Shown piece after piece: positions 13,395-64,000 of a DNA stretch of 64,000 nt. The first letter of the stretch is position 1. Each line of letters opens with the position of its first letter. Source of the stretch: Patescibacteria group bacterium. Its GTDB lineage: Bacteria; Patescibacteriota; JACPGU01. Below the pieces are notes generated by a model. That model ran no database searches. It was not told where the DNA came from and saw only the letters and a program-made list of their open reading frames with translations. The DNA lies in the NCBI GenBank assembly GCA_022703645.1, contig JAKLDG010000001.1, forward strand, positions 507,918-571,917. The letters are read 5' to 3'. Both the position numbers and the translations under genes were made by a program.

Positions 13395-13561
13395 GGTGAA
13401 ATAATTAATTTAATATGAAAGTATCCACTTGTTAAGTGTATCAAAGTTTTCCCCTTAAGTCAATGCTATATATCCAATTGAATATTGTAAAATTGAGAAT
13501 TGATTGAAAATTGGAAATTGAAAATTTAAAATTTACTATAAATTATAAATAAAAACATAAT

Positions 13562-41157: not shown

Positions 41158-41301
41158 AAAAAAATTTTATTATACCAGAATATTTTAGCAGAAATAAGGT
41201 AAAGTTGCAAAAAATTTTCAATTTTCATTTCTCAATTTTCATTGAATTTTCAATGATTCAATTCTATAATTTGGAAAATTGAAAATTGTAAAATTGAAAA
41301 T

Positions 41302-42423
41302 TTATTTGGATATTTCCTTGATTATTTCTTCCGCAATGATTTTACTGCTATTTTCAGGAAAAATACTTTCCATATTTTTTATCATTCTATTTCTTGTCTT
41401 CTTGTCTTTAATCATAAAATCAATCTCTTCTAAAAATTTTTCGCCATCCAAAAATTTTTCATCCAAAATCGAGGCAACGCCAATTTCTTTTAAAAATTGA
41501 GCGTTCATACTTTGATGATCAGCCGCAGCAGAAGGTAGCGGTATAATTATCGCAATCTTTTTTAAAGCAATTATTTCCGCGATTGAATTTGCTCCAGCAC
41601 GTGAAACAACCAGATCTGCATTCGCCATCATTTCCCCCATTTCTTCTCCTATGTGTGAATAGATAAGATAATCTTTGCGATCCTTCTCGTCCAATTCAAA
41701 ATATCCTTGTTTGAAATAATTCGCTTCTTTCACGCCAGTCTGATGAATTAAAACATATTTTGCAACTAATTTATCTAAAATCTCATTTATGTGCTTGTTT
41801 ATTGCGCTCGAACCCTGTGATCCTCCAAAAACAAAAACTATGGGCTTCTTTGGATTAAGACCATACTTTTTATAAAACTTTTGTTTATTTTCTACTATTG
41901 ATGAAATTTCTTCTCTAACAGGATTTCCGGTAAAAACACATTTCCCTATTGGTAAGTTCTGGTATTCTTCAACAGGAAATCCTAGATAAATCTTTTTTGC
42001 AAACCGCAAAAGTATTTTATTTGAAAGCCCCAAGATGGAATCTGATTCGTGTATTAAAAATGGAATTCTCAGTAATGCTGCAGCCATACAGAGTGGAACG
42101 GTTACGAAACCGCCTTTGGCAAAAATAATTTTCGGTCGATTTAAAAGTAGAATAAAAATAGATTGGATAAAGCCAAGCGCAATAAGTAATAAATCTGTAT
42201 AATTACGCCAGTTGCCATATCTTCGCCATTTACCGGCAAATATTCCTTTATATCTAATTCCCCTCGAAAGAACGATTCTTTTTTCAATACCAAAAAATCT
42301 TCCAATATAAATAAAATCGATATCTATTCCCTTCTTTTTAGATATCTTCATAAGATCATCTATTATCGCTATATTTGGCAGTACATGACCTCCCGTACCA
42401 CCACCAACAAAAATTATCTTCAT
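41302..42423 (-). CDS. murG: Undecaprenyldiphospho-muramoylpentapeptide beta-N-acetylglucosaminyltransferase (GT28)
   Basis: MKIIFVGGGTGGHVLP (G-loop). C-terminal GT28 motifs (VSRAGANSIAEI...) are present, in the canonical position between ftsW and murC. Confidence 0.9.
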   Translation of the reverse strand: MKIIFVGGGTGGHVLPNIAIIDDLMKISKKKGIDIDFIYIGRFFGIEKRIVLSRGIRYKGIFAGKWRRYGNWRNYTDLLLIALGFIQSIFILLLNRPKIIFAKGGFVTVPLCMAAALLRIPFLIHESDSILGLSNKILLRFAKKIYLGFPVEEYQNLPIGKCVFTGNPVREEISSIVENKQKFYKKYGLNPKKPIVFVFGGSQGSSAINKHINEILDKLVAKYVLIHQTGVKEANYFKQGYFELDEKDRKDYLIYSHIGEEMGEMMANADLVVSRAGANSIAEIIALKKIAIIIPLPSAAADHQSMNAQFLKEIGVASILDEKFLDGEKFLEEIDFMIKDKKTRNRMIKNMESIFPENSSKIIAEEIIKEISK

Positions 42424-47880: not shown

Positions 47881-48007
47881 AAAATGTTTTAGAAATTTTC
47901 AATTTTCAGTTTTCAATTTTCATTGTAAGTATCGCTTCGCGATGTATTTATTTGAAAATTGAATCATTGAGAATTGATTGAAAATTGTAAATTGTAAAAT
48001 TGGAAAT

Positions 48008-50296: not shown

Positions 50297-51172
50297 TTAA
50301 ATGACCTCTGCGACTCGCATTTTGGCGCTTCTTGATAATCTGTTTTCAATCTGTTCAGATCTGCCCGGCATGATCACTTTTTTATTTATGATTTTTAGAA
50401 TACCTTGTTTGTTTTTTTCTCTTAAAAAATTTTTTACTATTCTATCCTCTCCGGAGTGAAAAGATATTACTACCAGCCTTCCACCGCTTTTTAATACTTT
50501 TAAAGAATTTTCTAATGCTTTTTCTAAGTTTTTAAATTCTTCGTTTACCTCAATTCGCAGAGCCATGAATGTCAGCGTTGCCGGGTTTGTTTTGCCGTGT
50601 TGCGCTTTTACAGATCTGACAATTGCCGCTAAGTCATCTGTTGTTTCTATTCTTTTCTTTCGCCTCACTTCAGTAATCTTTTTTGCTATTACCCTTGCAA
50701 ATCTCTCATCTACATTTTTTAAAACTTCTTCCAATCTTTCCCTGGTATATGAATTTACTACTTTCTCTGCAGTAAAATCTTTATCAAGGTCTAATCTCAT
50801 ATCTAGTGGCTCATTTTTTAAAAAAGAAAAACCCCTACCACTTTCTTTTATTTGATAAAGGTTTGTCCCCAAGTCGAATACAATCCCATCAACTTTGCCA
50901 ATGTCATTTGATAACAGAATGTCAGCAACATCGAAAAAATTACGATTGTATAAAGACAAGTTTTTGTAAGCACCAAATTTACTTTTTGCATTTTTGTAAA
51001 TTTCCTTATCTACTTCTATTCCGATTACGTGACCGGTAAAGTCTTTCTTATTTAATATTTCACCAGTATGACCACCAAACCCGAATGTCGCATCTATATA
51101 TATACCATTAGGTTTGATTTCCAAAGCTTCAACCGCCTCTTTCTTCAATACTGTAGTGTGAATGTTTTTCAT
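50297..51172 (-). CDS. rsmH: 16S rRNA (cytosine1402-N4)-methyltransferase
   Basis: GIYIDATFGFGGHT SAM-binding motif; 291 aa; dcw position downstream of mraZ. Confidence 0.9.
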   Translation of the reverse strand: MKNIHTTVLKKEAVEALEIKPNGIYIDATFGFGGHTGEILNKKDFTGHVIGIEVDKEIYKNAKSKFGAYKNLSLYNRNFFDVADILLSNDIGKVDGIVFDLGTNLYQIKESGRGFSFLKNEPLDMRLDLDKDFTAEKVVNSYTRERLEEVLKNVDERFARVIAKKITEVRRKKRIETTDDLAAIVRSVKAQHGKTNPATLTFMALRIEVNEEFKNLEKALENSLKVLKSGGRLVVISFHSGEDRIVKNFLREKNKQGILKIINKKVIMPGRSEQIENRLSRSAKMRVAEVI

Positions 51173-51230
51173 TATGATTGGGTTTAAGCTTTCTAACTTT
51201 TACTTTTTATCTTCAAGTAAGTAATTAGCA

Positions 51231-51394
51231 GAAGCCTGAAGTCGGTAGGTTTGTTTTTGTTTTTGTTCAAAACATTTAGGATGGAGGTTCCCGCCCTTTC
51301 TTGAGAACAATATTTGTTCGCAAGAAAGGGCGGGATAAATTTTTTGTTTTTGTTTTATCCCGACTATTATGTCGAAATGTTGACTTCAGGCTTG
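51231..51394. repeat. Inverted-repeat / palindromic element (MITE- or REPIN-like) in the unusually long mraZ-rsmH spacer
   Basis: Outer inverted repeats GAAGCCTGAAGTC (51231-51243) and GACTTCAGGCTTG (51382-51394), 12/13 matched. Flanking T-rich direct repeats (TTTGTTTTTGTTTTTGTT at 51251 and TTTTTTGTTTTTGTTTTAT at 51341). A central 45-bp near-perfect GC-rich palindrome CCCGCCCTTTCTTG-agaacaatatttgttcg-CAAGAAAGGGCGGG (51290-51334) has a loop that is itself a hairpin. Confidence 0.6.
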
Positions 51395-51632
51395 TTATAA
51401 AAATCTTTTAAGAAGCCTCTGATAAGCAATATTTAGTTATAAAATTTAAGATTTTTTAGATAAAATTCATGAATAAAATTTTGAGTTTAGTTGATACTAA
51501 GCGAAAAATTTTTGAAAGAATTTTAGCAAAAAAGATAAATTTTTAACAAATACATTGTTTGTCTGAGGTTTCTTCTTCCTCCTAAAAGATCCTTAATCAG
51601 TTTTTAAATGCGGCTACGTATTTTGCGATTTT

Positions 51633-52064
51633 TTAAACTCCAAGAGACGAGAGTTTATCCGCAATATCTGAGGAATTTTTCTCGATATTTGCTTCATACT
51701 TCTTCCAGGCACTCTCGTCCCAGATCTCTATTCTGTTATAGAGTCCTGCAACGACAATGTCTTTCTTTAGATGAGCAAAATCCCTCAAATATTGTGGCAA
51801 AACTATTCTTCCTGTTTTATCAGGAACGATATCCATTGCTCCTGCAAGCATTAAACGTGCGTAATCACGTGCTGATTTATCAGTAGTTGGCATATTGCCG
51901 AGCTTCTCAGCAATCACATCCCACTCTTTTTTTCCGTACATAAACAGGCAGTCATCCAACCCGCGAGTCACTACAACACCTTCGTGAAGTTCGCCTCGGT
52001 ATTTTGGAGGGGTTGCAATCCTTCCTTTGTCATCAATTGTGTATGAATACTCGCCAATGAACAT
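51633..52064 (-). CDS. mraZ: Transcriptional regulator MraZ
   Basis: MFIGEYSYTIDDKGRIATPPKYR... contains the duplicated SpoVT/AbrB-like MraZ halves; it is the first gene of the dcw cluster. Confidence 0.9.
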   Translation of the reverse strand: MFIGEYSYTIDDKGRIATPPKYRGELHEGVVVTRGLDDCLFMYGKKEWDVIAEKLGNMPTTDKSARDYARLMLAGAMDIVPDKTGRIVLPQYLRDFAHLKKDIVVAGLYNRIEIWDESAWKKYEANIEKNSSDIADKLSSLGV

Positions 52065-52154
52065 CTTTTCTTGGTTTAAAGTTTAATGATTTTCACCCGT
52101 TAGAAGTACGGGTACTTTTAGCCCTCTTTTTTACTTATTGTGAACCTGATGGAT

Positions 52155-52192
52155 TATCCACTTTTCCCCACTCTTATCCACAATTTCCCACT
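52155..52192 (-). promoter_or_regulatory. MraZ operator: four direct GTGG(G/A) repeats at exact 10-bp spacing upstream of mraZ
   Basis: On the minus strand the sequence reads AGTGGGaaattGTGGATaagaGTGGGGaaaaGTGGA, with CCAC at + strand 52157-60, 52167-70, 52177-80 and 52187-90. MraZ is known to bind GTGGG-type direct repeats in its own promoter. Confidence 0.6.
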
Positions 52193-52243
52193 CGCTTGAT
52201 ACATAATAAACCTTTTTTTAAGTCTTTGCAAGCAAAATAAAGG

Positions 52244-52277
52244 TAGAAAAAAATGACCTTGTTGGGTCATTTTTTTC
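52244..52277 (-). terminator. Rho-independent (bidirectional-type) terminator downstream of the giant surface-protein gene
   Basis: A-run, then AATGACC-ttgttg-GGTCATT, then TTTTTTT, located between the stop of 52349..56056 and the mraZ operator. Confidence 0.6.
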
Positions 52278-52348
52278 TAAATGGTATTGATTTGTGGATA
52301 ATTATTGAGAATAATTCTCAAAAATATCTATTTCCCACTTAGCTATCA

Positions 52349-55300
52349 TTATTTCAATCTTGTATTCTTTATTATCTTTTCAATCTTAGTAGTGTTGGTA
52401 CCATATTTACCTTCAAACGTGAATTTGGTATCAAAAGCTGAAGCAGTGGTTAACCCTTGAACATCAAAGGTTATCACAGTTGAACCATTATTAACAACTA
52501 GCCCAGTAACACAATTACTTTTTACTGTTAATGGATTACCGTCTGCGTCAGAAGCCCCAACTACCTTGTAGCCTGATGGCATAGATGCGCAGGCTTTGAC
52601 GGTCCAGTTGGTAGTAGATTCAAGAACAAATTCGTAAGAATGAGAGTTAACACCAGCGCCCCAGACCACAGATTCTGGGTAAGTCAGGTTAAGATTTGCT
52701 GGAGTAGTAATAAAGTCTTCATCACCTGGGTCTACTGCTACACAAATCTTGTTGGCATCTTTAGAGCTACATTTAACCTTCACACTCTTCATAACTTTGT
52801 TGTTCATCTTTGCTACCGGTCCTTTATTGAAGTTAAACTTATCAGAAGTTAATTTTCTACAAATGGTAGTAGTATGAGTTGAACTATCTACCGGATCGGA
52901 GATAACCACACGGGTAGCAGTGATATAGTTATCAATCTTAGGAAGAATGATATATTGAGAACTCTTTGTAATTGCAGCTTCTTTGGTGGTTGCTGTGTTA
53001 CCATCATATATAGAAGCACATTGAGCCTTAACCTTCTTGTCGAAGTCTTTAGATCCTAATGCAGTTATTAATGCTGCTTGGGTATAGACTTTGGTATTAA
53101 CTGAATCGATTACTTCTCCACGAGAGTCCCCTACTGGCCCAGGAATTAGAGAAGTTTTTGCTGATTTCTTTTCCTTACCATTTACTATGCCTGCAAAACC
53201 TACAACATCTTTACTATACACTACATGCAGATCACCTGTAGCTAATATAGCAGCTTTTACTGAAACGCCTAACGCAAATCTAGTAAAGTGAGTTGTAGTA
53301 AATGTTATATAGTAGTTAGAACCAGAGATACCAGTATCAGTAATGTTGTCATGATCAGCCCAGGTATTCCCTGCATCGGGAGAAAAGAATACATGGACAT
53401 CAGTAATAGCATAGCCAAGACTGTCCAAAAGAGCCTTATCAATCTTTAATGTTATTGTTACTGGAGAATTGAATGTCAGACCATCTGGTGAAAATTCATA
53501 TGAAGTTAATCCATCATATATACCGAATGGACCGGTGATCATGAAGTTAGATCCTGTTCCATCAATGCTGATTGTTGTGTCAGTGGAAAGCGCGCCAGCA
53601 GGAACAGTGATAGAAGCATTTGTGTCTGGAGTTGTAAGAGTAGCCCCCGCACTGGTAACCAATCCTGAAACATAAGCAGGGTTAGTTGGAGCAGCATTAG
53701 AGATGGAAATACTATTAATCTCAGGGGTAGAATTAGGATCGTTTGACATTAAGATTGTTTTATATTGAATGTACTGTCCTGTTGGAGAGCCAACTGGTTC
53801 TCCGGAATTACCATGATTTTGCCAATCAGACCACGCGCCTGAATATATTTCAAATTCATTAATGGCTACTGTATTAACTGCGCCTTCATCAACTTGTTTG
53901 GTGATATGTAACCTGAGTTTCCTTGTCTCAACTGTACTGAAGGATATTGAGAAATGATTATTAGAATTATTACCAATAACTTGTTGGACAGTATTCCAAT
54001 CAGAATCTACGGTTGGCTCACAATTATTATCATCTACACATACCTGAATATCAAAATCTACAGGATACATTTTTGTGCCGTACCATAGATCAACTTTAGA
54101 TACTTTGGTTGGAGATGCAAAATCAACCGCTACCCATTGAGGATTGGATGGCGATATTGATGATCCATTATCTTCGCTCTGCCAACCACTAAATTCCCTA
54201 TCACCATCAGCGATATTTGATACGTCACCAAATGGATAGTTTGGTTCTCCAGAACTAGATGAAAGATTTTTATTTAAAATAATATTTGTAATTGGATCAG
54301 CAGCAGCAGTTCGAGTCTGTAATGTTATTGATGTGCCAGCAGGAGTATTTGCAGTCCAGTCAATCGTACCCCAGTCTGTCTGGGCTCCAGTATTAATTAT
54401 GGAGGAAACCAAAGATGAAGAACCCGAATAACCTAACGGACCCAGCTTCTGCGCGTAAATTTGTGTGTTTAGCATACTATAGTCTTCCCATGCAGTGATT
54501 GCGCTTCCGGTTTCTGCTGTAGTTAAAACGGGAAAGCTTTGTCCGGCAGCTTTAGTGGCAATCGCCAAGCCATCTGCTCCCCACAAAGTGTTGCCGAAAG
54601 AATCTATATCTTGTCCATAAATATCAGAGTTCATACCGGAACGAAAATCGTTCCATACGATTATAGCACCTCCGTTGCCATCAGAAGCAATCTGATGGTC
54701 AAACTGAACTTGACCAAAATAATTCGAAACCGCTACTCCCGCAGGATTCCATATTAAAGAACCGGAAGAGTCAATTTTTTGAGCATAAATATTATATGTA
54801 GTTGGCGTATTGCGATCGTCAGCCCAGCTTATTATTGCGCCACCGTTGCCATCTGAAACAATTTTAGAATATACTTCCATACTTGTCGTAGTCGCGATTC
54901 CAACTCCATCTGCCTGCCATTTTATTGCCCCGGAGCTGTCAACTCTCTGGGCATAAACATTATTATCATTTGGGCTTACTCTATCATCCGACCAAGTTAC
55001 TATTACACCATTGCTACCATCCGATGTAATCTGCGGATCCTGACCACCATTTATCGTTACTTCAGCCCATTGCAATGAACCGGAACTACTAATTCTTTGC
55101 GCAAAAAGACCAGAACCATTTTGAGTGATATTAAGACCATCCCAAACCACTATCGCACCGCCTGAACCATCCGAAACCAATTTCGAATTTGAGTCCCTAT
55201 AAGTATTATTAGTAGAAATCTTGACGCCGTCCGTTGCCCATTGGAAAGAACCTGACGAATCTAATTTTTGCGCATAAACATGATATTGCCAATTTCTGCT

Positions 55301-56056
55301 GTCAAACCATGATACAATAAACCCACCGTTTCCATCCTGAATAATCATAGGTTTGCCCTGACCGCGTTGCGCCGCGCAAACAACAACTCCAGAGCCCCAT
55401 ATTAAATTACCTGAAGAATCAATCCTTTGAGCATAGATATCATCACCGTTATAATTACGATAGTCACCCCATACCACAACTACTCCTCCAAAACCGTCTG
55501 GGGTGATATGGTAATCTCTTTCTGAACCTATATCTTCATACAGACTTAGCTGTTTTACTTCCCACATAACTCCACCTGACGGATTAACCTTCTTGATTAC
55601 TAAATCAGCATTGGTATTATCAAACATCGCCATTATAGTGTTGCCATTGCCATCCGGAATAATATTTGTAAACATATATTGTAGCGCATCTGAAGATATA
55701 TTTAAACCGCCATTCTGCCATTTTGATATTGACAGATCCATAGCCAATCTTCCGGCGCTTGAGGTATTGACAGATCCTTCGGTTGAGTAGTATTTATTCC
55801 AACCAGCCGCATCTCCTGGGAGAACCGCCATAGACGCCTGATCCGCGCCTCCAGTCCAGTCGTTTTGGGTGAAGATCACGGTGCCTGAAGCTTTGGTATT
55901 AAACATCATAAGCTTTTTCAAACTTAGTCCGTCTAGACTTACCACTACAGCAAAAGATGCAATTAGAGCCAAAGCAGAAATTCCAATAAAAAGTTTATAG
56001 TTCTTTTTTGGAGTACATTTCTTTGGTTTGCATTTTTTACAAAACATTTTTTTCAT
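52349..56056 (-). CDS. Giant secreted/surface protein: beta-propeller repeats + discoidin (F5/8 type C) domain + C-terminal Ig-like domains
   Basis: 1235 aa. The N-terminus is basic and Cys-rich (CKKCKPKKC) followed by a TM/signal anchor. It has about eight ~50-aa repeats (YAQ(K/R)(I/L)DSSG...W...GV......sDG.GG.I..W.D.R). The discoidin-like segment reads VAVDFASPTKVSKVDLWYG...FDIQVCVDDNN...LRLHITKQ. Confidence 0.6.
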   Translation of the reverse strand: MKKMFCKKCKPKKCTPKKNYKLFIGISALALIASFAVVVSLDGLSLKKLMMFNTKASGTVIFTQNDWTGGADQASMAVLPGDAAGWNKYYSTEGSVNTSSAGRLAMDLSISKWQNGGLNISSDALQYMFTNIIPDGNGNTIMAMFDNTNADLVIKKVNPSGGVMWEVKQLSLYEDIGSERDYHITPDGFGGVVVVWGDYRNYNGDDIYAQRIDSSGNLIWGSGVVVCAAQRGQGKPMIIQDGNGGFIVSWFDSRNWQYHVYAQKLDSSGSFQWATDGVKISTNNTYRDSNSKLVSDGSGGAIVVWDGLNITQNGSGLFAQRISSSGSLQWAEVTINGGQDPQITSDGSNGVIVTWSDDRVSPNDNNVYAQRVDSSGAIKWQADGVGIATTTSMEVYSKIVSDGNGGAIISWADDRNTPTTYNIYAQKIDSSGSLIWNPAGVAVSNYFGQVQFDHQIASDGNGGAIIVWNDFRSGMNSDIYGQDIDSFGNTLWGADGLAIATKAAGQSFPVLTTAETGSAITAWEDYSMLNTQIYAQKLGPLGYSGSSSLVSSIINTGAQTDWGTIDWTANTPAGTSITLQTRTAAADPITNIILNKNLSSSSGEPNYPFGDVSNIADGDREFSGWQSEDNGSSISPSNPQWVAVDFASPTKVSKVDLWYGTKMYPVDFDIQVCVDDNNCEPTVDSDWNTVQQVIGNNSNNHFSISFSTVETRKLRLHITKQVDEGAVNTVAINEFEIYSGAWSDWQNHGNSGEPVGSPTGQYIQYKTILMSNDPNSTPEINSISISNAAPTNPAYVSGLVTSAGATLTTPDTNASITVPAGALSTDTTISIDGTGSNFMITGPFGIYDGLTSYEFSPDGLTFNSPVTITLKIDKALLDSLGYAITDVHVFFSPDAGNTWADHDNITDTGISGSNYYITFTTTHFTRFALGVSVKAAILATGDLHVVYSKDVVGFAGIVNGKEKKSAKTSLIPGPVGDSRGEVIDSVNTKVYTQAALITALGSKDFDKKVKAQCASIYDGNTATTKEAAITKSSQYIILPKIDNYITATRVVISDPVDSSTHTTTICRKLTSDKFNFNKGPVAKMNNKVMKSVKVKCSSKDANKICVAVDPGDEDFITTPANLNLTYPESVVWGAGVNSHSYEFVLESTTNWTVKACASMPSGYKVVGASDADGNPLTVKSNCVTGLVVNNGSTVITFDVQGLTTASAFDTKFTFEGKYGTNTTKIEKIIKNTRLK

Positions 56057-56119
56057 TTTTTATTTTTCCTTTTTTTACTTTTTATATTAATATGACTTAA
56101 GTTTGATGATTTTTAAATT

Positions 56120-57163
56120 TTATTTTATCTCTTGATTCAATTTACGATTTTTTTCCTCCTGCTTCTGTAACTCTTCAAGTAACTTTTTTGCTTCCTTTAC
56201 TGCTGCTTTATTGGGATTCTTTTTTGGACCGATGGTAACTTTTATGCTTTTTATACCTTCTATATTTCCTGCCTTATCGACCGAATAATAATAAACCGTA
56301 TATTCGCCTGCTCCACTTAATTTGATTGGCGAAGAATAAACATTAAAATTTCCAGATTCTCCGGTTCTATAATAAGTTTTTTCTACCCCAGATTTTACTG
56401 TTGAACTTGGCGGAAGAGCAGATAATAAATCTGGCTGACCAGAAATACTGTCAAAAACAATTCTACCTTCACTTGGTACCGGCAATAAAGCGGGGTGATA
56501 AAAACTGTTTCCACTATAACTAAACGCTTTTGCAAAAGCATCAACATTTATTCCGTATTGAGAAAATTGTTGTGGATCTTTTGTATCATATAGAGTCATA
56601 TGAACCGTATCAGAACCAATGTTTGTTGTAACTAGATATACATAAATGTCCTGCGGTTCTGAAAAAGGTTGTCCGCCGGAATAATTTGCTTCTAATTCAT
56701 TTAATGATAAAGTTGCAGGAAGCAAGCCACTGCCACTTTGGCTGCTGGAGAATAAAACTGCAGGAGAATACGTACCGCCGGTTGAAAATTCATCCATATA
56801 GCTCACCCCGTTAAAAGACATTCCAGTTCGCGCTAGTTCATAACCACCGTTGATATTCTCGACAATTGATAAATCAGGCTCGCCATCTATCTTATTGATT
56901 TCAGCAGCTGCGCTTCCTCTTCCAACTTTTTTAATCTCATCAGTTGCATTTAATACCACCTCTGCTTTGTCTTTGAAATACCAGCTTCCATCAGATGTTT
57001 TTGTTTTAGCACCTGTAACTTTTGCGGAAGTTAATGGTGCGATAGTATCACCAGCTAAAAAAGCAGAAGTCTTAATAACACCCACCCCTACAACAGCTAA
57101 CACCAATAATGTTAATAATGGTAATTTATATCTTGAATTGTTTTTCATATTTTTTCCTGTCAT
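56120..57163 (-). CDS. Secreted Ig-like-domain hypothetical protein with a Lys/Glu-rich coiled-coil tail
   Basis: 347 aa. Signal peptide (LLTLLVLAVVGVGVIKTSA), a Big-like strand (EYTVYYYSVDKAGNIEGIKSIKVTI) and a C-terminal KEAKKLLEELQKQEEKNRKLNQEIK. Confidence 0.45.
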   Translation of the reverse strand: MTGKNMKNNSRYKLPLLTLLVLAVVGVGVIKTSAFLAGDTIAPLTSAKVTGAKTKTSDGSWYFKDKAEVVLNATDEIKKVGRGSAAAEINKIDGEPDLSIVENINGGYELARTGMSFNGVSYMDEFSTGGTYSPAVLFSSSQSGSGLLPATLSLNELEANYSGGQPFSEPQDIYVYLVTTNIGSDTVHMTLYDTKDPQQFSQYGINVDAFAKAFSYSGNSFYHPALLPVPSEGRIVFDSISGQPDLLSALPPSSTVKSGVEKTYYRTGESGNFNVYSSPIKLSGAGEYTVYYYSVDKAGNIEGIKSIKVTIGPKKNPNKAAVKEAKKLLEELQKQEEKNRKLNQEIK

Positions 57164-57186
57164 GTTTGTAAAATTGCTGATATTAA

Positions 57187-60126
57187 CTAATATTTTAACT
57201 GCCAGCCGGCAATAATTATATCCGGATTGATCTGAAGTGAAGGATAGTTATATTTGTTTAATTCAACTAAATCAACCCACATATTTTCTACTCCATATAA
57301 CACGAAAGCGATGCTTGAAAGCGAATCACCGCCTTTTACTATATAAATATTTTCACCAGCACCTTGTGTTGACAGCTGATATTTGAATACCCATCCACTA
57401 TAAATTATATTTGGTATCGTGACAAGTGTGGAAAACTGTTCGCTATTCAACGCAACTAATATTTCTCTCGTAGTACCTAATTGCGCCGCAATACTATAAA
57501 GGGAATCCCCTGGTTGAACTACATAAAATCCATAAACGATTTCTTGGATTGGGTTTACGATCGATTCGGGGGTAGGTTCTGGGATCGGCGTTGGAGTTGG
57601 TTCAGGTATAGGAGTTGGAGTGGATTCTTCTGGAGTTGGTATGGCCTCAGAGATAGGTTCAGGAATAGGTTCGGAAGTTGGTGGAATAAAAGTATATACA
57701 GATGGCGGTTGTGGAGCTGTTTCGATAGTCCAGGAATAATTAGCAGGAGTTAAATCAACATTCCCTACTAGATCTGTAGCCTTAACTTCAAATGAATGAA
57801 CTCCTAAAGATAACCCGCTATAATTAACCGGGCTGGTACATACTGCAAATAAAGCTCCGTCAACCCGACATTCGAAAGTTGAGGCTTCACTGGAGCTGAA
57901 AGTGAAGGTTGCATCGGTTGAATAAGTTACCAAAGCTGGGTTGGAATCTATGATAGTATTTGGGCTAGTTGAATCAATATTTATCGGATTAGCTGAAGAT
58001 AGAACAGATTTATTAGCAAGCGCATCTTCTGAATAAATACAGATGTAAAAACCATTATTGGTTTCGTCTGATTGGTTCATAGAATCAGTATCCAGTTTTG
58101 TAAAGGTATCGGTAATAGAACAAGTGTTGGTAGCGAAATAATCCCATTTTTTCACCACAGCTGCGTCCCAGTCACCGGTAATAGTATCACTTGCGACTGG
58201 ACCTATTTCCACATCGTTTGCAAAGGAAAGAGCCGGAGCGGTAGCATCTATATTGATTTTATTGGCAGAAGCCAAAACAGATTTATTCCCAAGGGAGTCT
58301 TCACCATAAAGGCATATATAGAAACCATTATTGGTTTCGTCTGATTGGTTCATAGAATCAGTATCCAGTTTTGTAAAGGTATCGGTAATAGAACAAGTGT
58401 TGGTAGCGAAATAATCCCATTTTTTCACCACAGCTGCGTCCCAGTCACCGGTAATAGTATCAGAAGACACTGGACCAGCAGCTATATCATTGGTAAAAGA
58501 AAGTGCTGGTGGAGTTGCATCTATACTAATACTATTAGTAGAAACTAAGATAGATTTATTACCAAAACCGTCCTCCCCATAAAGACAAATATACCTGCCG
58601 TTATTGGTTTCATCTGATTGGTTCATAGAATCAGTATCCAGTTTTGTAAAGGTATCGGTAATAGAACAAGTGTTGGTAGCGAAATAATCCCATTTTTTAG
58701 TAGTTGAATCTCCCCAAGAGCCTATAATAGTATCACTCTGAATTGGACCGGCTGCCACATCATCCACAAAGGAAAGAACCGGACTTAAATTATCTACTCG
58801 GAAGCTTGCCGAAGTCTGAACAGATCCATCTACCAGACTATCACTTGGAGTTACTCTAATCTGGTAATTGCTTTGATCTAAGCCATCCAAAGATCCCCCA
58901 CCATTCGAAGCATTTTTGGTATCCCAAACTATATTTAATGTTACCGCGCCACCGGAGGTATCAATCGGATTGCTAGTTCCTATCTGATAAGCATTACTAT
59001 TATTCAGATCAATAGCCCCAGACGAGGGTGTTGCAAAAGCAAGATAAGGAGCATACCAATTCATTCCCCCATCCGGTGAATATTCTACTTTTAGTTTAGT
59101 ATTTTGTAAGTTTGCATCAGAAATATTAGTCTGAATATTTACATAACCAGTACCATCAGTCGGCTGAGAAATAAATGAAGGAATGGTCGCCACGGGCGCA
59201 ATGTTTGCCGAAACAACAACCTCATTACTTAATGCGGATACAAGGGTACCCGATGTTGCGCATATTTTTATACTTTCTGCTGCAGAATATCTCATCATTG
59301 TATAACTTTTTACCCCTGAAGTTACTGCTGTGCCTGATGCCGGGTTAGAGAATAAAACACCCGAACCTAGTGTCCCCCCGCAATTCTGATCTGAAAGCAC
59401 CGGGGTAAGCGTAATTGTAGAAGTATTATCAGTCGTTACTGTATGACCAAATTGATCTTGTACTGCAATCACTGGTTTAACTGCAAAACCAATATTAATA
59501 ATAGCAGTAGCCGAAGGTTGATTTGTAAAAATAAGTTTATTTTTGGCTCCTATAGCTTGGGATAGAGCACCAAAACTAGTTGAATCGTTCACTATCCCCA
59601 CGATTGCTCCCGTTCCAGGGTTTGCTGATGTTCGATAAATATTTCCTGAAGAAGGAATAACGGATCCGTCAATAGCGCGTACTTGCAGCCCGCTAATAGT
59701 CATTACATCCGATTTATTTGCTGTACCATCTGTAGAAAAAGTAATTGTTATTGTTGTGGCCGTAACTGCTATAGAACTAGATGTTATATCTCTAGCTGCC
59801 GTATAAGTAACTGTCCCAACACCAGGATTAAATGACCAGTTATTTGGTGCTGTTAAAATTAAAGTGGTATTTGTTTGACTCGCTGCAAAGTCACCATTTG
59901 CTCCCTCGGTAATGACAATATTGCCAAGCGTCGTCCATGCTGGAGTTGTGGCATTTGCCGCTTTGTCTGCAGAAATATTTGTGCCTCCAGAAGATGGGGT
60001 TACATTTGCTGCTGCTTCAGTTTTCAGACTCATATAAACTCCGACGGACAGCAAAAAAATAATCACTCCGATTAAAAAGAATCGTAGATATTTATTTTTT
60101 ATGGTTTTTAGAAAAAGATTTTCCAT
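57187..60126 (-). CDS. Large secreted surface protein with three near-identical 91-aa tandem repeats, a Cys-containing Ig-like domain, a Pro/Thr/Glu linker and two C-terminal LysM-like repeats
   Basis: 979 aa. Signal anchor (FLIGVIIFLLSVGVYMSL). The triplicated unit reads ...KKWDYFATNTCSITDTFTKLDTDSMNQSDETNNG(F/R)YIC(L/I)Y.ED.... The Ig-like domain reads TFTFSSSEASTFECRVDGALFAVCTSPVNYSGLSLGVHSFEVKATDLVGNVD. The linker is PEPISEAIPTPEESTPTPIPEPTPTPIPEPTPE. The C-terminus has YVVQPGDSLYSIAAQLGTTREILVALNS.. and YIVKGGDSLSSIAFVLYGVENMWVDLVELNK...AGWQLKY. Confidence 0.6.
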   Translation of the reverse strand: MENLFLKTIKNKYLRFFLIGVIIFLLSVGVYMSLKTEAAANVTPSSGGTNISADKAANATTPAWTTLGNIVITEGANGDFAASQTNTTLILTAPNNWSFNPGVGTVTYTAARDITSSSIAVTATTITITFSTDGTANKSDVMTISGLQVRAIDGSVIPSSGNIYRTSANPGTGAIVGIVNDSTSFGALSQAIGAKNKLIFTNQPSATAIINIGFAVKPVIAVQDQFGHTVTTDNTSTITLTPVLSDQNCGGTLGSGVLFSNPASGTAVTSGVKSYTMMRYSAAESIKICATSGTLVSALSNEVVVSANIAPVATIPSFISQPTDGTGYVNIQTNISDANLQNTKLKVEYSPDGGMNWYAPYLAFATPSSGAIDLNNSNAYQIGTSNPIDTSGGAVTLNIVWDTKNASNGGGSLDGLDQSNYQIRVTPSDSLVDGSVQTSASFRVDNLSPVLSFVDDVAAGPIQSDTIIGSWGDSTTKKWDYFATNTCSITDTFTKLDTDSMNQSDETNNGRYICLYGEDGFGNKSILVSTNSISIDATPPALSFTNDIAAGPVSSDTITGDWDAAVVKKWDYFATNTCSITDTFTKLDTDSMNQSDETNNGFYICLYGEDSLGNKSVLASANKINIDATAPALSFANDVEIGPVASDTITGDWDAAVVKKWDYFATNTCSITDTFTKLDTDSMNQSDETNNGFYICIYSEDALANKSVLSSANPINIDSTSPNTIIDSNPALVTYSTDATFTFSSSEASTFECRVDGALFAVCTSPVNYSGLSLGVHSFEVKATDLVGNVDLTPANYSWTIETAPQPPSVYTFIPPTSEPIPEPISEAIPTPEESTPTPIPEPTPTPIPEPTPESIVNPIQEIVYGFYVVQPGDSLYSIAAQLGTTREILVALNSEQFSTLVTIPNIIYSGWVFKYQLSTQGAGENIYIVKGGDSLSSIAFVLYGVENMWVDLVELNKYNYPSLQINPDIIIAGWQLKY
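57971..58790. repeat. Intragenic tandem repeat, 3 copies x 273 bp (approximate bounds)
   Basis: The string gtttcgtctgattggttcatagaatca recurs at 58061, 58334 and 58607, i.e. at exact 273-bp spacing. Long stretches are identical between copies, and the + strand track ORFs 58072..58344 and 58345..58548 have identical N-termini for this reason. The repeats lie in frame within 57187..60126. Confidence 0.85.
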
Positions 60127-60145
60127 TTTTTATTTCTTTAAAAGT

Positions 60146-63100
60146 TTATTCAACGGTTAACTGCCAATAAATTCCTTTATCTTCCATCCAAACCAATCCT
60201 TCAACTACTGGCGTAAAATATGACTTATAAGTCCCGGCGTCCGCCGGAGCTTTAATTTTAAATGTAAATCTTCCTACTTCTCCTGGTTTTACTTCTGCTG
60301 TATCAAAAGAAGTACAGCGGTTTGGAGCTATCCAGTCGCTATTCGCAAATTCCGAAGTATAATCTTTTTGCTGAGTTGGACTTCCATAAATAGAGCCTGT
60401 ACCGAACCTAACTGGATTTGCACCGTCTTTGAACCAGCTAACCGTACCCGTGTTTTTCAGTTCAATCCAAACTTCAATCTCCTCCCCCGCTGAAATCTGG
60501 GTAGGATAGCCAGACTGACCGACTACCTCATAACCGTAAGTTGAAGTTGAACCTAAAATATCATATTTCAATAACCAGTCAGAATAAATAACATTTGCAC
60601 CACCGTCTAAACTGAGATTAGTATACTGATCTTGATTTAGTTCAACCAATCTTCTCCATTTCTCCTGATCGCCATAGAGTTTCAGCGCTATCCATTGCAG
60701 ATCTTCACCAGGTTCAACCTTATAGTAGCCGAATTCACCTGTTGGAGCTACCGTAGGTAATTCTTTAAATCTTAGTTTCCATCCTGCAACTATTATACTT
60801 GGATCACTTTCCAATGAAGGGAATATATCTTTATTTAATTCGACTAATCGCGTCCATTGTTCTTCATCCTGAAATAATTCGCGGGCAATTGATTTCAGCG
60901 AATCGCCATCTTGAACTATATAATAATCCCCTATTATTTTTTGCACTTCTGGCTGAGCTTGAGGAACTGGTTGAGAAACCGGCTGTGATTGATTTTCTGC
61001 TATTGGTTCTGATGTTTGTTGAATGTTGCCAAATCTCAATTGCCACTCACTATATATAATGTCAGGTCGGCTAACCAGACTTGGGAATGTATCTTTATTT
61101 AATTCTACGAGATCTCTCCACCTTTCACTATCGCCATAAACTTTTTCTGCAACTGTCTTAAGGTTTTCTCCTGGTTGAACAGTATAAATCCCTGAATCAC
61201 TTCTGACTGAAATTTCCCAGAATAAACCAATATCATTCATCCATCCTGTTCCATCAGCAACTGGAGTAAAATATGCTTTGTAATTTCCAATTTGCGTTGG
61301 AGCTTTAATTGTAAATTCGAACCTTGCCGTATCTCCCGATTCAATAAGAAAGTCTGGGATACTGGATGCTCTGTTTGGTGATAACCAATTTTCAGCGGCA
61401 AACTCAGAAATATAATCTCTTTTTTGGGCAGAGCTTCCAAACGATGACCCTGTTCCGAGACGGACATTACTGTCCCAAGCAACAGAACCGGTATTTTTTA
61501 CTTCAACCCAAACATCGGTAGTCTCGCCAGGTTTTAAAGTGCTTGGGTATGGTGATTGAGATACCAGTTCATAAGAATATATTAGTTGTGGTTCCGGTTG
61601 GATTTCAACTATTGGTTCAGGCTGTACCTCAGGTTGAGGTTGGACTTCGGGCTGTTCTTGACCATCTCCTACAACCGTAACTTCCCAATACAAACCAATA
61701 TCAGTCATCCAAGTTACTCCGTCTGCTACCGGTGTGAAATAAGCTCGATAAGTACCAGGCGTCGTTGGAGCTTTGATTGTAAATTGAGCCTTGGCATCGT
61801 TGCCTGGTTCAACATAGCTGCTGATTGCAGTAGAGTTTGGATTAATTATCGAAGTAGGTCTGTTTACAGATAGCCAATTGATATTTGCAAATTCTGATGG
61901 ATAATCTCTCTGTTGACTTGGACTACCATACATAGAACCGGTTCCGAGACGAACTTTGCTATCCCAAACAGCTGTACCGGTATTTTTTACTTCTATCCAG
62001 ACATCGGTTGTCTCACCCGGTTTTAGTGTACTTGGATATGGAGACTGAGAAACCAATTGATAATTATAACCTTCAACTGGAATGGTTTGCTCAATCTGCT
62101 GTTCTGGTTGTACTATTTCTTGCGGCTGCTCAGGTATTTCAGGTATTACCTCTGGCTGTAATATCTCTTCTGGTTGTTCTAACTCCGGCTCTTCGATAAT
62201 AGGTTCCGGTTCGGTTACCTCTACATTTTCACTAAATATTATTGAATCTGATACAGAACCTGAAACATTTCCTGCCGCGTCTTTATATTTTGCATAAACT
62301 GTTTTTGTACCATATCCAGTTGCCAAAGCCCAAGCCTTCGAATTAACAAACGTCTCCCAGCTGCTGCCGATAAAGTAAGCGTTGTTAGAAATCATCATTG
62401 ATATGGCATCAGTAGCGCCCAACGTCAGGGTAACGCTTGCCGATGCAGTTGAGCTTGCTCCGCTATTAATTGAGATAGAAGTGTTGGTCGGAGGTGTTGT
62501 ATCTTGAATTAGATTATTTCCTCCACCACTATTGTTTTGCTGGCTAACACTAATACTCCAAGTATAGCTTTCTGGCGTTGCATCGCTATTTCCTGCCAGG
62601 TCAACCGCGTAAACATAAAATGTGTGACTGCCATTTGCCAAACCTGAATAATTCTTTGGGCTGGAACAAGTAGTATAATAGCTACCGTCTATTTTGCATT
62701 TAAAAGTTGAAGACTCATCCGCGCTAAATACGAAAGTAGCGGATGAAGAAGTTGCGTTTAACGCCGGTGTAGAAGATAGAGTAGTTTCTGGAGGGATACT
62801 TTCAATTATATAACCATTTTCTATCCCAAAACCTGCGCCACTAATAGAATCCAGGGCTTTGATTTTTAGATCACCACTGCTTGTAATTGAAATCGAACAG
62901 TTCACTGTATAGCTATCAACCTGCGTACAAGCAAAATCAGTGAAACCAGCGGTAGTAGCTCCATCTACTGAAACACCGGCGCTATCAACTCCCCCGCTAT
63001 CGGTAATATGAATTGTCGTATTTGTAATATTTGCCGAAGAAGCTTTCGTTGGAGCAGAAATCGAAATAACTGGAACCGTAATAGTCACCGCGTAACCATT

Positions 63101-64000
63101 CTCGCTCTGTTCAGAGGTATTGGAAACCAGATCAAAGGCTTGGATTTTCAGATTACCGGAACTTAATAAACGGATTGTGCAATCTACGGTTTTGATATCC
63201 GTTTGTGTACAGTTTAAATTATCGTAATCATCTATTGTATTTTCATCATCTATAGAAACATTGACCGCTAATATTTCATTATCATCAGTGACATGAATTG
63301 CAGTATCAGTAATGGCACTATTAGAAGTTTTCGTTGGTGCAGTAATTATAATTACCGGACCAGTATTATCGATTACATAGTTATTTTCTGTCTGTGTCCC
63401 TTGATTATTAAATGAATCGAGAGCTTTGATTACTAAATTACCTGAAGAAGAAATATTTATGGAACAATCTACCGTTTTCGCATTAGTTTGAATACAAGAA
63501 AATCCGCTAGTTCCGGCAGTAGTTGAAGTATCTATTTCAACACTATTAGCCAAGACCCCAATATTGTCAGTAATATGAATCTCGGTCGTGGTAATTGCAG
63601 CATTTGAAAGTTTATCCGGAGCGCTGATGATTATAACTGGAGCTGAAGAATCAATGACATAACCATCTTCTTCCCCAGATATTTGATTTGATGCGCCGTC
63701 TTCAGCGCGAATTACCAATTTGCCTGAACCGGAAATTTCGATTGCGCAATCTACTGTACTACTATTGGTTTGAGTACAGCTGAAATTGCTATAAGCAACT
63801 GTGGTTGATGGATCGACTAAAACACCACCGGTAAAAATAGCGCCATTATCTGTAATATGAATAGTAGTATCAGTAACCAAACTGCCAGCAGTCTTGGTTG
63901 GAGCCGTGATAGAAACTACTGGGTTAACCATATCAATGATAAATCCATTTTCAGTTGCTACTGAATTATTAGCTACTACATCAGAAGCGCTAATTGCCAA
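60146..64000 (-). CDS. Giant surface protein, partial (N-terminus beyond window end): five Ig-like ~90-aa repeats, a Cys Ig-like domain, three NBR1-like domains shared with the L,D-transpeptidase, Glu/Pro-rich linkers and four LysM-like repeats
   Basis: >=1284 aa. Repeated units IISAPDKLSNAAITTTEIHITDN...NGYVID. A domain TFVFSADESSTFKCKIDGSYYTTCSSPKNYSGLANGSHTFYVYAVDLAGNSD. Three copies of (Y.Y.LVSQSPYPSTLKPGETTDVW.EVKNTG...W...RLGTGS...F.IKAPT..G.Y.AYFTPVADG..WM.DIGL.WE..V). Four copies of Y.V.PGE.L..(I/V)A.K.YGD.E.W..LVELN.D..PSL...P.II...W.L.F. The ORF is open to the window edge. Confidence 0.6.
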   Translation of the reverse strand: MAISASDVVANNSVATENGFIIDMVNPVVSITAPTKTAGSLVTDTTIHITDNGAIFTGGVLVDPSTTVAYSNFSCTQTNSSTVDCAIEISGSGKLVIRAEDGASNQISGEEDGYVIDSSAPVIIISAPDKLSNAAITTTEIHITDNIGVLANSVEIDTSTTAGTSGFSCIQTNAKTVDCSINISSSGNLVIKALDSFNNQGTQTENNYVIDNTGPVIIITAPTKTSNSAITDTAIHVTDDNEILAVNVSIDDENTIDDYDNLNCTQTDIKTVDCTIRLLSSGNLKIQAFDLVSNTSEQSENGYAVTITVPVISISAPTKASSANITNTTIHITDSGGVDSAGVSVDGATTAGFTDFACTQVDSYTVNCSISITSSGDLKIKALDSISGAGFGIENGYIIESIPPETTLSSTPALNATSSSATFVFSADESSTFKCKIDGSYYTTCSSPKNYSGLANGSHTFYVYAVDLAGNSDATPESYTWSISVSQQNNSGGGNNLIQDTTPPTNTSISINSGASSTASASVTLTLGATDAISMMISNNAYFIGSSWETFVNSKAWALATGYGTKTVYAKYKDAAGNVSGSVSDSIIFSENVEVTEPEPIIEEPELEQPEEILQPEVIPEIPEQPQEIVQPEQQIEQTIPVEGYNYQLVSQSPYPSTLKPGETTDVWIEVKNTGTAVWDSKVRLGTGSMYGSPSQQRDYPSEFANINWLSVNRPTSIINPNSTAISSYVEPGNDAKAQFTIKAPTTPGTYRAYFTPVADGVTWMTDIGLYWEVTVVGDGQEQPEVQPQPEVQPEPIVEIQPEPQLIYSYELVSQSPYPSTLKPGETTDVWVEVKNTGSVAWDSNVRLGTGSSFGSSAQKRDYISEFAAENWLSPNRASSIPDFLIESGDTARFEFTIKAPTQIGNYKAYFTPVADGTGWMNDIGLFWEISVRSDSGIYTVQPGENLKTVAEKVYGDSERWRDLVELNKDTFPSLVSRPDIIYSEWQLRFGNIQQTSEPIAENQSQPVSQPVPQAQPEVQKIIGDYYIVQDGDSLKSIARELFQDEEQWTRLVELNKDIFPSLESDPSIIVAGWKLRFKELPTVAPTGEFGYYKVEPGEDLQWIALKLYGDQEKWRRLVELNQDQYTNLSLDGGANVIYSDWLLKYDILGSTSTYGYEVVGQSGYPTQISAGEEIEVWIELKNTGTVSWFKDGANPVRFGTGSIYGSPTQQKDYTSEFANSDWIAPNRCTSFDTAEVKPGEVGRFTFKIKAPADAGTYKSYFTPVVEGLVWMEDKGIYWQLTVE

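Follow-up and report, generated by a model that had tools for sequence, protein, structure and literature searches.

The window analysed here is a 64,000-nucleotide stretch of contig JAKLDG010000001.1 from a Patescibacteria group bacterium, and it contains a minus-strand gene, at 57187-60126, whose LysM-anchored product carries three tandem units of 91 residues. We consider it quite probable that an old triplication in the stalk of this surface protein was followed by intragenic gene conversion of the central segment of the units. The open reading frame (ORF) has 979 codons; in the NCBI record the protein starts at M32 and is deposited as HRY60530.1, a 'LysM domain-containing protein' of 948 aa from Patescibacteria group bacterium. 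The 979-aa protein is matched at 100% by protein P0001 and by a second locus, L002 (GCA_035454225.1, contig DAOTEO010000002.1), whose DNA is 100% identical to that of the window.

Tandem Repeats Finder (TRF) reports one array in the window, with a period of 273 nt, 0% indels and a score of 993, and a repeat search places three in-register copies at 57968-58786 with spacings of 273 and 273 nt. Aligned on codons, the array occupies 57970-58788 and consists of three head-to-tail, in-frame units of 273 nt or 91 residues, all read from the minus strand: unit 1 (58516-58788, aa 447-537; hidden Markov model score 110-115), unit 2 (58243-58515, aa 538-628; recovered by the repeat search and the profile, and modelled by AlphaFold2 with a predicted local distance difference test score, pLDDT, of 98) and unit 3 (57970-58242, aa 629-719; recovered by the repeat search and the family profile). 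An earlier note on this DNA had described an in-frame tandem triplication here, with an exact 273-nt periodicity, and had quoted the three peptides GRYICLYGEDGFG, GFYICLYGEDSLG and GFYICIYSEDALA; the triplication and its period are borne out, and the peptides are present in the units. The same note called the copies nearly identical or near-perfect, differing at only a few residues, and this does not survive alignment. DNA identity is 74.7% between units 1 and 2, 74.7% between units 1 and 3 and 83.2% between units 2 and 3; in protein the same pairs share 74.7%, 69.2% and 85.7%, respectively, with 13-28 of the 91 residues differing.

All 46-69 pairwise nucleotide differences fall outside identical blocks of 86-141 nt. 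An exact 86-nt core is common to the three units, at 58613-58698 in unit 1, 58340-58425 in unit 2 and 58067-58152 in unit 3, and in the latter two it is contained in an exact block of 141 nt (58322-58462 and 58049-58189; minus strand throughout). The stretches of more than 100 nt that had been described as near-identical are thus real for units 2 and 3, whereas unit 1 shares 86 exact nt with the others, or 101 nt at 98%. Identical runs of 86, 86 and 141 nt were reached in none of 200,000 codon permutations, whose maxima were 72, 63 and 90 nt. Chance would predict 0 occurrences of the 86-nt core; there are exactly three, and neither the rest of the window nor its flanks contain another. A single C/T difference within the core region distinguishes unit 1 from units 2 and 3, and it is kept in both assemblies.

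We estimated divergence regionally, by Nei-Gojobori analysis of the core and of the flanks of the units. Between unit flanks, the proportion of synonymous differences (pS) is 0.46-0.83, synonymous divergence (dS) ranges from 0.73 to infinity (i.e. it is saturated) and nonsynonymous divergence (dN) is 0.14-0.60. In the core, dS is 0 between units 2 and 3 and 0.11 between unit 1 and units 2 and 3, and dN is 0. The flanks of the array units are 65% identical to one another in protein sequence, about the same as their mean best identity of 66% to units of other organisms. Synonymous divergence is saturated over the outer two thirds of every unit, and we therefore read the triplication as old and the units as old paralogues whose centre has been secondarily homogenised. 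The triplication had been called recent; that holds for neither flank, and only the core has a dS as low as 0-0.11. A recent tandem duplication of whole units, followed by slight divergence, would account for the exact 273-nt period without indels and for the long identical stretches, but it sits badly with an overall DNA identity of 75-83%, with the saturated pS of the flanks and with a flank protein identity (about 65%) equal to that shared with units of other organisms (0.66). Nor can uniform recent divergence put all of the 46-69 differences outside one block of 86-141 nt. With the synonymous-site analysis already contradicting it, we regard a recent origin of the whole units as highly improbable.

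To ask what else could keep the core identical, it is necessary to know how the 91-residue domain varies elsewhere. A profile built from the three units, searched against 1.84 billion cluster representatives, matched 176 proteins at E ≤ 1e-3, 94 at E ≤ 1e-10 and 18 at E ≤ 1e-30, and local re-profiling gave 287 full-length units in 151 proteins. Most often a protein has one unit (75 proteins), two (33) or three (11), and the number rises to 20. Four loci with the unit were recovered in GTDB genomes, all of them from Patescibacteria: Paceibacterota, Moraniibacteriota, Saccharibacteria and one unclassified member. By these searches the domain family is rare and is without a Pfam entry. The three array units gave no match to Pfam at E up to 10, and the family profile gave none among PDB sequences. 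When 66 family units were scanned singly, scattered sub-threshold matches appeared to Big_6, SbsC_C, Ig_3 and PKD_4; the last of these was seen in one of the 66, at E 0.019, and the profiles that define PKD domains (PF00801, PF18911 and relatives) do not recognise the unit.

The alignment of 66 single units has four invariant residues, C41, C68, D73 and S83, and an AlphaFold2 model of one unit based on it is a beta-sandwich with pLDDT 98 and a predicted TM-score (pTM) of 0.88; AlphaFold run on the single sequence of the three-unit region gave a pLDDT of 30. The best PDB matches of the model in Foldseek are PKD domains, those of AAVR, of Vibrio PrtV and Epp PKD1 and of clostridial ColG and ColH, with TM-scores of 0.55-0.62, probabilities up to 0.99, E ≥ 0.046 and 10-20% identity. 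The model thus depicts the 91-residue unit as resembling a PKD/Ig-like beta-sandwich. Like PKD and bacterial Ig-like stalk domains, the unit has about 90 residues, is predicted to be a beta-sandwich and occurs in tandem arrays in extracellular proteins. Unlike PKD domains, it has no above-threshold match to Pfam PKD or Big models, shares only 10-20% identity with its structural matches and has a signature of its own, formed by two Cys, one Asp and one Ser that never vary, together with the alignment motifs GPV.SDTI, NNGKYIC.Y.ED..GN and S.N.INID; Cys41 and Cys68 are predicted to form a disulfide.

Within this family the part of the domain that is identical in the array is the part that elsewhere changes most. 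Across 131 family proteins, columns ~33-66 of the profile, which correspond to the identical core, are the most variable, with an entropy of ~2.2-3.2 bits, one invariant Cys apart; the conserved motifs (P3, F7, V11, GPV, D19, NNG.YIC, D77, GN, S87 and N.I) lie in the flanks. Among 57 family proteins with several units, 54 have a core that is less alike from unit to unit than the flanks are; the window protein reverses this pattern, with 100% identity between units in the core versus 65% in the flanks. As a control, the two-unit array of a Paceibacterota metagenome-assembled genome (MAG; L003) has a DNA identity of 82% that is evenly spread, and its longest exact run is 36 nt.

Since the core is the domain family's most variable segment, constraint on the protein does not explain its identity, and extreme constraint of this kind was rejected on the entropy profile and the 57-protein comparison. 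It belongs to a broader alternative, namely that selection keeps the core, either through such constraint or through a nucleotide-level element such as an RNA, an antisense gene or a binding site. The 100% identity of the core extends to its protein sequence, which would agree with this, as would a mechanically called antisense ORF of 90 aa at 58072-58344. The antisense ORF, however, is one period (273 nt) long, which is consistent with a start and a stop recurring at the repeat period, and the core DNA is absent from the rest of the window and its flanks. An embedded RNA element was rejected as well: the core had no match in an Rfam scan, and folding against shuffled sequences gave z-scores of +0.5 for the three-way core, which is not significant, and of -1.9 and -0.9 for the two strands of the 141-nt block. 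Given in addition that no part of the domain is less conserved in the 131 proteins, selection on the core seems to us very unlikely. We also considered the repeats as the target of a diversity-generating retroelement, with variable and template repeats. All twelve types of substitution are represented among the differences between units, which lie in the flanks, and none falls in the shared block; because of this unbiased spectrum, adenine mutagenesis of that type is excluded, a conclusion drawn from the substitutions, with no scan made of the window for a reverse transcriptase.

A fourth unit of the family provides a further comparison. It is a single unit in the adjacent giant gene, at L002 positions 1969-2244 and outside the window, and it has only 62-65% DNA identity to the array units. 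Its core is that of the family consensus (…DADGTCSTTAGDYSKTDANS…), and the array units instead have a derived core (…FATNTCSITDTFTKLDTDS…).

Concerted evolution of intragenic repeats by gene conversion is a general phenomenon in genes for repeat-containing surface proteins. The array resembles it in that a tract of full identity, synonymous sites included, lies inside diverged paralogous units; it departs from the usual case in that the converted tract is sharply bounded, covers the hypervariable segment of the family and is known from a single lineage. In the sequence of events that we propose, an ancient triplication would have given the stalk, which runs from the N-terminal head to the wall anchor at the C terminus, three modules of 91 residues. 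A later, non-reciprocal intragenic recombination, which we infer to be gene conversion, would then have copied the centre of one unit into the others, so that 86 nt became the same across the whole array and 141 nt the same in units 2 and 3. By our own estimate the homogenised block would be long enough for homologous recombination, and it would exceed the usual k-mers of short-read assembly; a crossover, or an assembler's path, through the block would remove exactly one unit and yield a two-unit form of 888 aa. The number of units would in turn set the length of the stalk and hence, as we infer by analogy, the distance of the head from the wall.

Several points weigh against this proposal. 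The gene-conversion pattern comes from essentially one genome and has neither a donor/recipient polarity nor intermediate alleles. The three records of the locus may derive from one sample or from sister samples and, if so, are not independent samples of a population. Simplification of the assembly graph in short-read data could have exaggerated the identity of the core, although the C/T difference that survives in both assemblies counters this. The E-values of the Foldseek matches to PKD domains (≥0.046) are not significant, and the function assigned to stalk length is an analogy.

The two-unit form is an observed one. Searching 5.8 billion sequences for near-identical proteins, we found only two clusters close to the window protein, P0001 and P0002. 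P0002 has 888 aa, exactly 979 − 91, and the sole difference in the alignment is the loss of one unit. The two-unit allele lies in L001 (JGI 3300010429), a contig of 866,256 bp that shows 0 mismatches to the window outside the array over ~22 kb; a third record, a contig of 867,473 bp, encodes the 979-aa protein with three units. In L001 the second unit is the same as window unit 2 through position 194 and, starting at position 54, the same as window unit 3. Because these matches overlap, from position 54 to 194, the junction can lie anywhere inside the 141-nt identical block. What the allele has lost is a unique segment of 132 nt, made of the right flank of unit 2 and the left flank of unit 3 (58190-58321, minus strand). 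Since the two-unit allele lacks this unique sequence, the change can only have gone from three units to two, and the presence of the 132-nt segment is, by sequence comparison, diagnostic of at least three units. A 42-nt probe from the core had no exact match in public metagenome and genome contig collections, and the strain of the window is therefore not in those collections.

The repeats had been described as recombinogenic and as an assembly hazard, and here the prediction proved apt: a JGI contig identical over ~22 kb loses one unit with its junction in the 141-nt block. This is a demonstrated repeat-associated discrepancy between assemblies. Its cause may be read in two ways, and the two-unit sequence alone would fit a real unequal crossover, of the RecA type, and a bypass of a loop in a de Bruijn graph equally well.

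On the first reading, copy number varies genuinely, whether frequently or in a programmed way, and alleles of two units, of three and perhaps of more arise in the population by RecA-type recombination within the identical block, by which the length of the stalk or its antigenicity is tuned. A contig that has a two-unit allele with a junction in that block, and is otherwise identical, is what such recombination would leave; the members of the family have from 1 to 20 units, and the combination of head, repeat stalk and wall anchor parallels the Periscope Proteins (PMC8201768). Only a single variant is present among the three records, however, and by our reasoning a de Bruijn bypass of a 141-nt repeat would give the same sequence, since the k-mers in common use are ≤127 and reads of 150 nt barely span it. 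Moreover, identity here is confined to a sub-segment of the unit, whereas in known Periscope Proteins whole repeats are 80-100% identical. We hold real variation to be possible, though somewhat doubtful.

On the second reading, the two-unit form is an assembly artefact, perhaps together with the perfect identity of the core, and the real genome has at least three units; we give this about an even chance. The absence of any difference over ~22 kb between the two- and three-unit contigs suggests one and the same population, the junction falls exactly at the graph ambiguity, and the two long contigs are just 1,217 bp apart in total length. By sequence alone, however, an artefact is indistinguishable from a real deletion; the three-unit form has unique sequence and was not expanded from two units, and the single-base difference kept in the core argues against a wholesale smoothing of the consensus. 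Because the flanks are fully identical and suggest the same population, we judge collapse to be no less likely than real variation. The earlier description of the array as typical of contingency loci is accordingly unproven, because one variant is known and collapse in a de Bruijn graph gives the same sequence. A classical contingency locus, with slippage in tracts of 1-9 nt, was rejected, the unit being 273 nt long and in frame; apart from a 24-nt period in the Pro/Thr linker, TRF found no short tracts in the gene.

Periscope Proteins are bacterial surface proteins of variable length whose tandem domain repeats are highly identical (Sgo_0707 with its SHIRT domains, SasG, Rib and Esp, among others), and they are recognised operationally by repeats of >50 residues with ≥80% identity and by variation in repeat number among ≥90%-identical homologues (PMC8201768, Whelan et al. 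2021). The window protein has three units of 91 aa, well over that length. Of its three pairs of units, only units 2 and 3 (85.7%) exceed 80% identity. As to repeat number, P0002 has one unit fewer, in contigs that are otherwise identical and with a junction in the 141-nt repeat where collapse is possible. Cell-surface attachment together with a distal functional domain, which also characterises these proteins, is provided by the LysM domains and by the N-terminal head module, the latter as read from sequence. The likeness extends to DNA identity between repeats, a substrate for intragenic recombination that alters repeat number, to the existence of a homologue with one repeat fewer and to the order of a head, a stalk of tandem globular repeats and a wall anchor. 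The differences are that there are only three units, that high DNA identity is limited to one third to one half of each unit, that the anchor is a non-covalent LysM rather than the LPXTG motif of the founding Periscope Proteins, and that the host is an uncultured Patescibacteria bacterium. The repeats of Periscope Proteins also build an extended rod on which the head is borne outward; the structural model in this analysis is of a single unit. By analogy, we suggest that the array protein works like the stalk of a Periscope Protein or fibrillar adhesin; it is not a verified member of either. Two other proteins of the family, P0058 (1946 aa) and P0151 (10 units), have arrays whose units average 86-87% identity, with a maximum of 98%, and would appear from their sequences to be better Periscope-type candidates than the window protein.

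The rest of the protein holds the label of a surface-protein gene, given to it at the outset, because there is an N-terminal hydrophobic signal or anchor and there are two C-terminal LysM domains; Ig-like modules and a Pro/Thr linker lie between them. Judged by its sequence, then, this is a secreted, peptidoglycan-bound surface protein of a Patescibacteria bacterium. A basic and hydrophobic segment at the N terminus (MENLFLKTIKNKYLRFFLIGVIIFLLSVGVYMSLKTEAAA; 60007-60126, minus strand, as are all the features of the gene) is, from the translation, a putative signal peptide or membrane anchor. It is followed by a conserved module of ~265 aa (59212-60006; aa ~41-305), the presumed head, which shares 40-60% identity with the N termini of P0006-P0028 and had no match in a Pfam scan. 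We propose it as a candidate uncharacterised 'head' domain. The proteins that share it at their N termini include many very large surface proteins from Patescibacteria, and others from MAGs of Verrucomicrobiae and Ignavibacteriales.

Between the head and the array lies a beta-rich module (APVATIPSF...SFRVDN; 58789-59202) with homology to P0004, P0008, P0016, P0030 and P0076 and only a weak match to Big_5 in Pfam (E 0.034). In other surface proteins of Patescibacteria (P0016, P0076) this module directly precedes units of the repeat family, and P0076 (562 aa) carries the module, one repeat unit and LysM. On the 3' side of the array is a distinct Ig-like module (…STFECRVDGALFAVCTSPVNYSGLSLGVHSFEVKATDLVGN…; 57721-57969), which is tandemly repeated in the matching proteins P0003, P0005 and P0029 and matches only PKD_3, weakly. 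A Pro/Thr/Glu-rich linker (57547-57720), evident in the translation and with the 24-nt TRF period at 57575-57628, connects it to the wall anchor. LysM domain 1 (57379-57525), a peptidoglycan-binding domain, scores 33-39 bits against PF01476, for which the cut-off is 20.9, and matches the LysM of PDB 4uz2 at E 2e-6. LysM domain 2 (57190-57345) is a weaker match; its 19.6 bits against PF01476 are slightly below the gathering threshold of 20.9, and it has weak PDB matches to the LysM of Kbp.

The gene is the second of four co-directional genes for large surface proteins, of 3288, 979, 347 and 1235 aa, that occupy 50297-64000 with gaps of 19-63 nt. This cluster sits immediately upstream of the mraZ-mraW-ftsI-mur cluster of division and cell-wall genes. 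The 1235-aa protein has an F5/8 type C/discoidin domain. The adjacent giant gene, encoding the 3288-aa protein, is represented in the window by its 3' part (60146-64000) and has LysM and N_BRCA1_IG-like Ig matches; it also contains a dispersed 210-nt direct repeat at 61370-61579 and 61859-62068, with 74% identity and a spacing of 489 nt. Elsewhere in the window, arrays of a 7-nt periodic motif (ATTGAAA or ATTGNAA) occupy a few intergenic gaps, at 261-316, 13477-13527, 41212-41303 and 47893-47994. Those at 41.2 kb and 47.9 kb are paired arrays on opposite strands that face each other. With at most one mismatch, ATTGAAAATTG occurs 31 times, against 9.3 ± 2.7 expected. A possible reading of these arrays is a repeat peculiar to the lineage, whether intergenic, terminator or regulatory.

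The mosaic of identity in the array is ordinary concerted evolution, and the present understanding of how repeats evolve is unchanged by it; its sole unusual aspect is that the converted tract covers a hypervariable segment of the domain family, one that is probably surface-exposed. A bolder reading, which we rate as quite unlikely, is that this lineage rewrites the exposed loops of all its stalk modules together by cassette-like gene conversion, and thereby repeatedly regenerates the substrate for recombination that switches the stalk between two, three and more units. If true, it would be a combined mechanism for varying specificity and length in an episymbiotic bacterium of the candidate phyla radiation.

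The case also bears on how such genes are read. Near-identity of repeats as judged by eye can mask an old duplication with a converted core. The exact intragenic repeat of 141 nt caused, or at least coincides with, a discrepancy of one unit between otherwise identical metagenome assemblies, and the copy number of this gene is not to be trusted without spanning reads. What is new is a domain family unclassified in Pfam, whose recovered genome loci all belong to Patescibacteria, and a candidate stalk protein of variable length. Such a protein would extend the poorly characterised surface repertoire of the Patescibacteria, whose lifestyle depends on cell-surface contacts.

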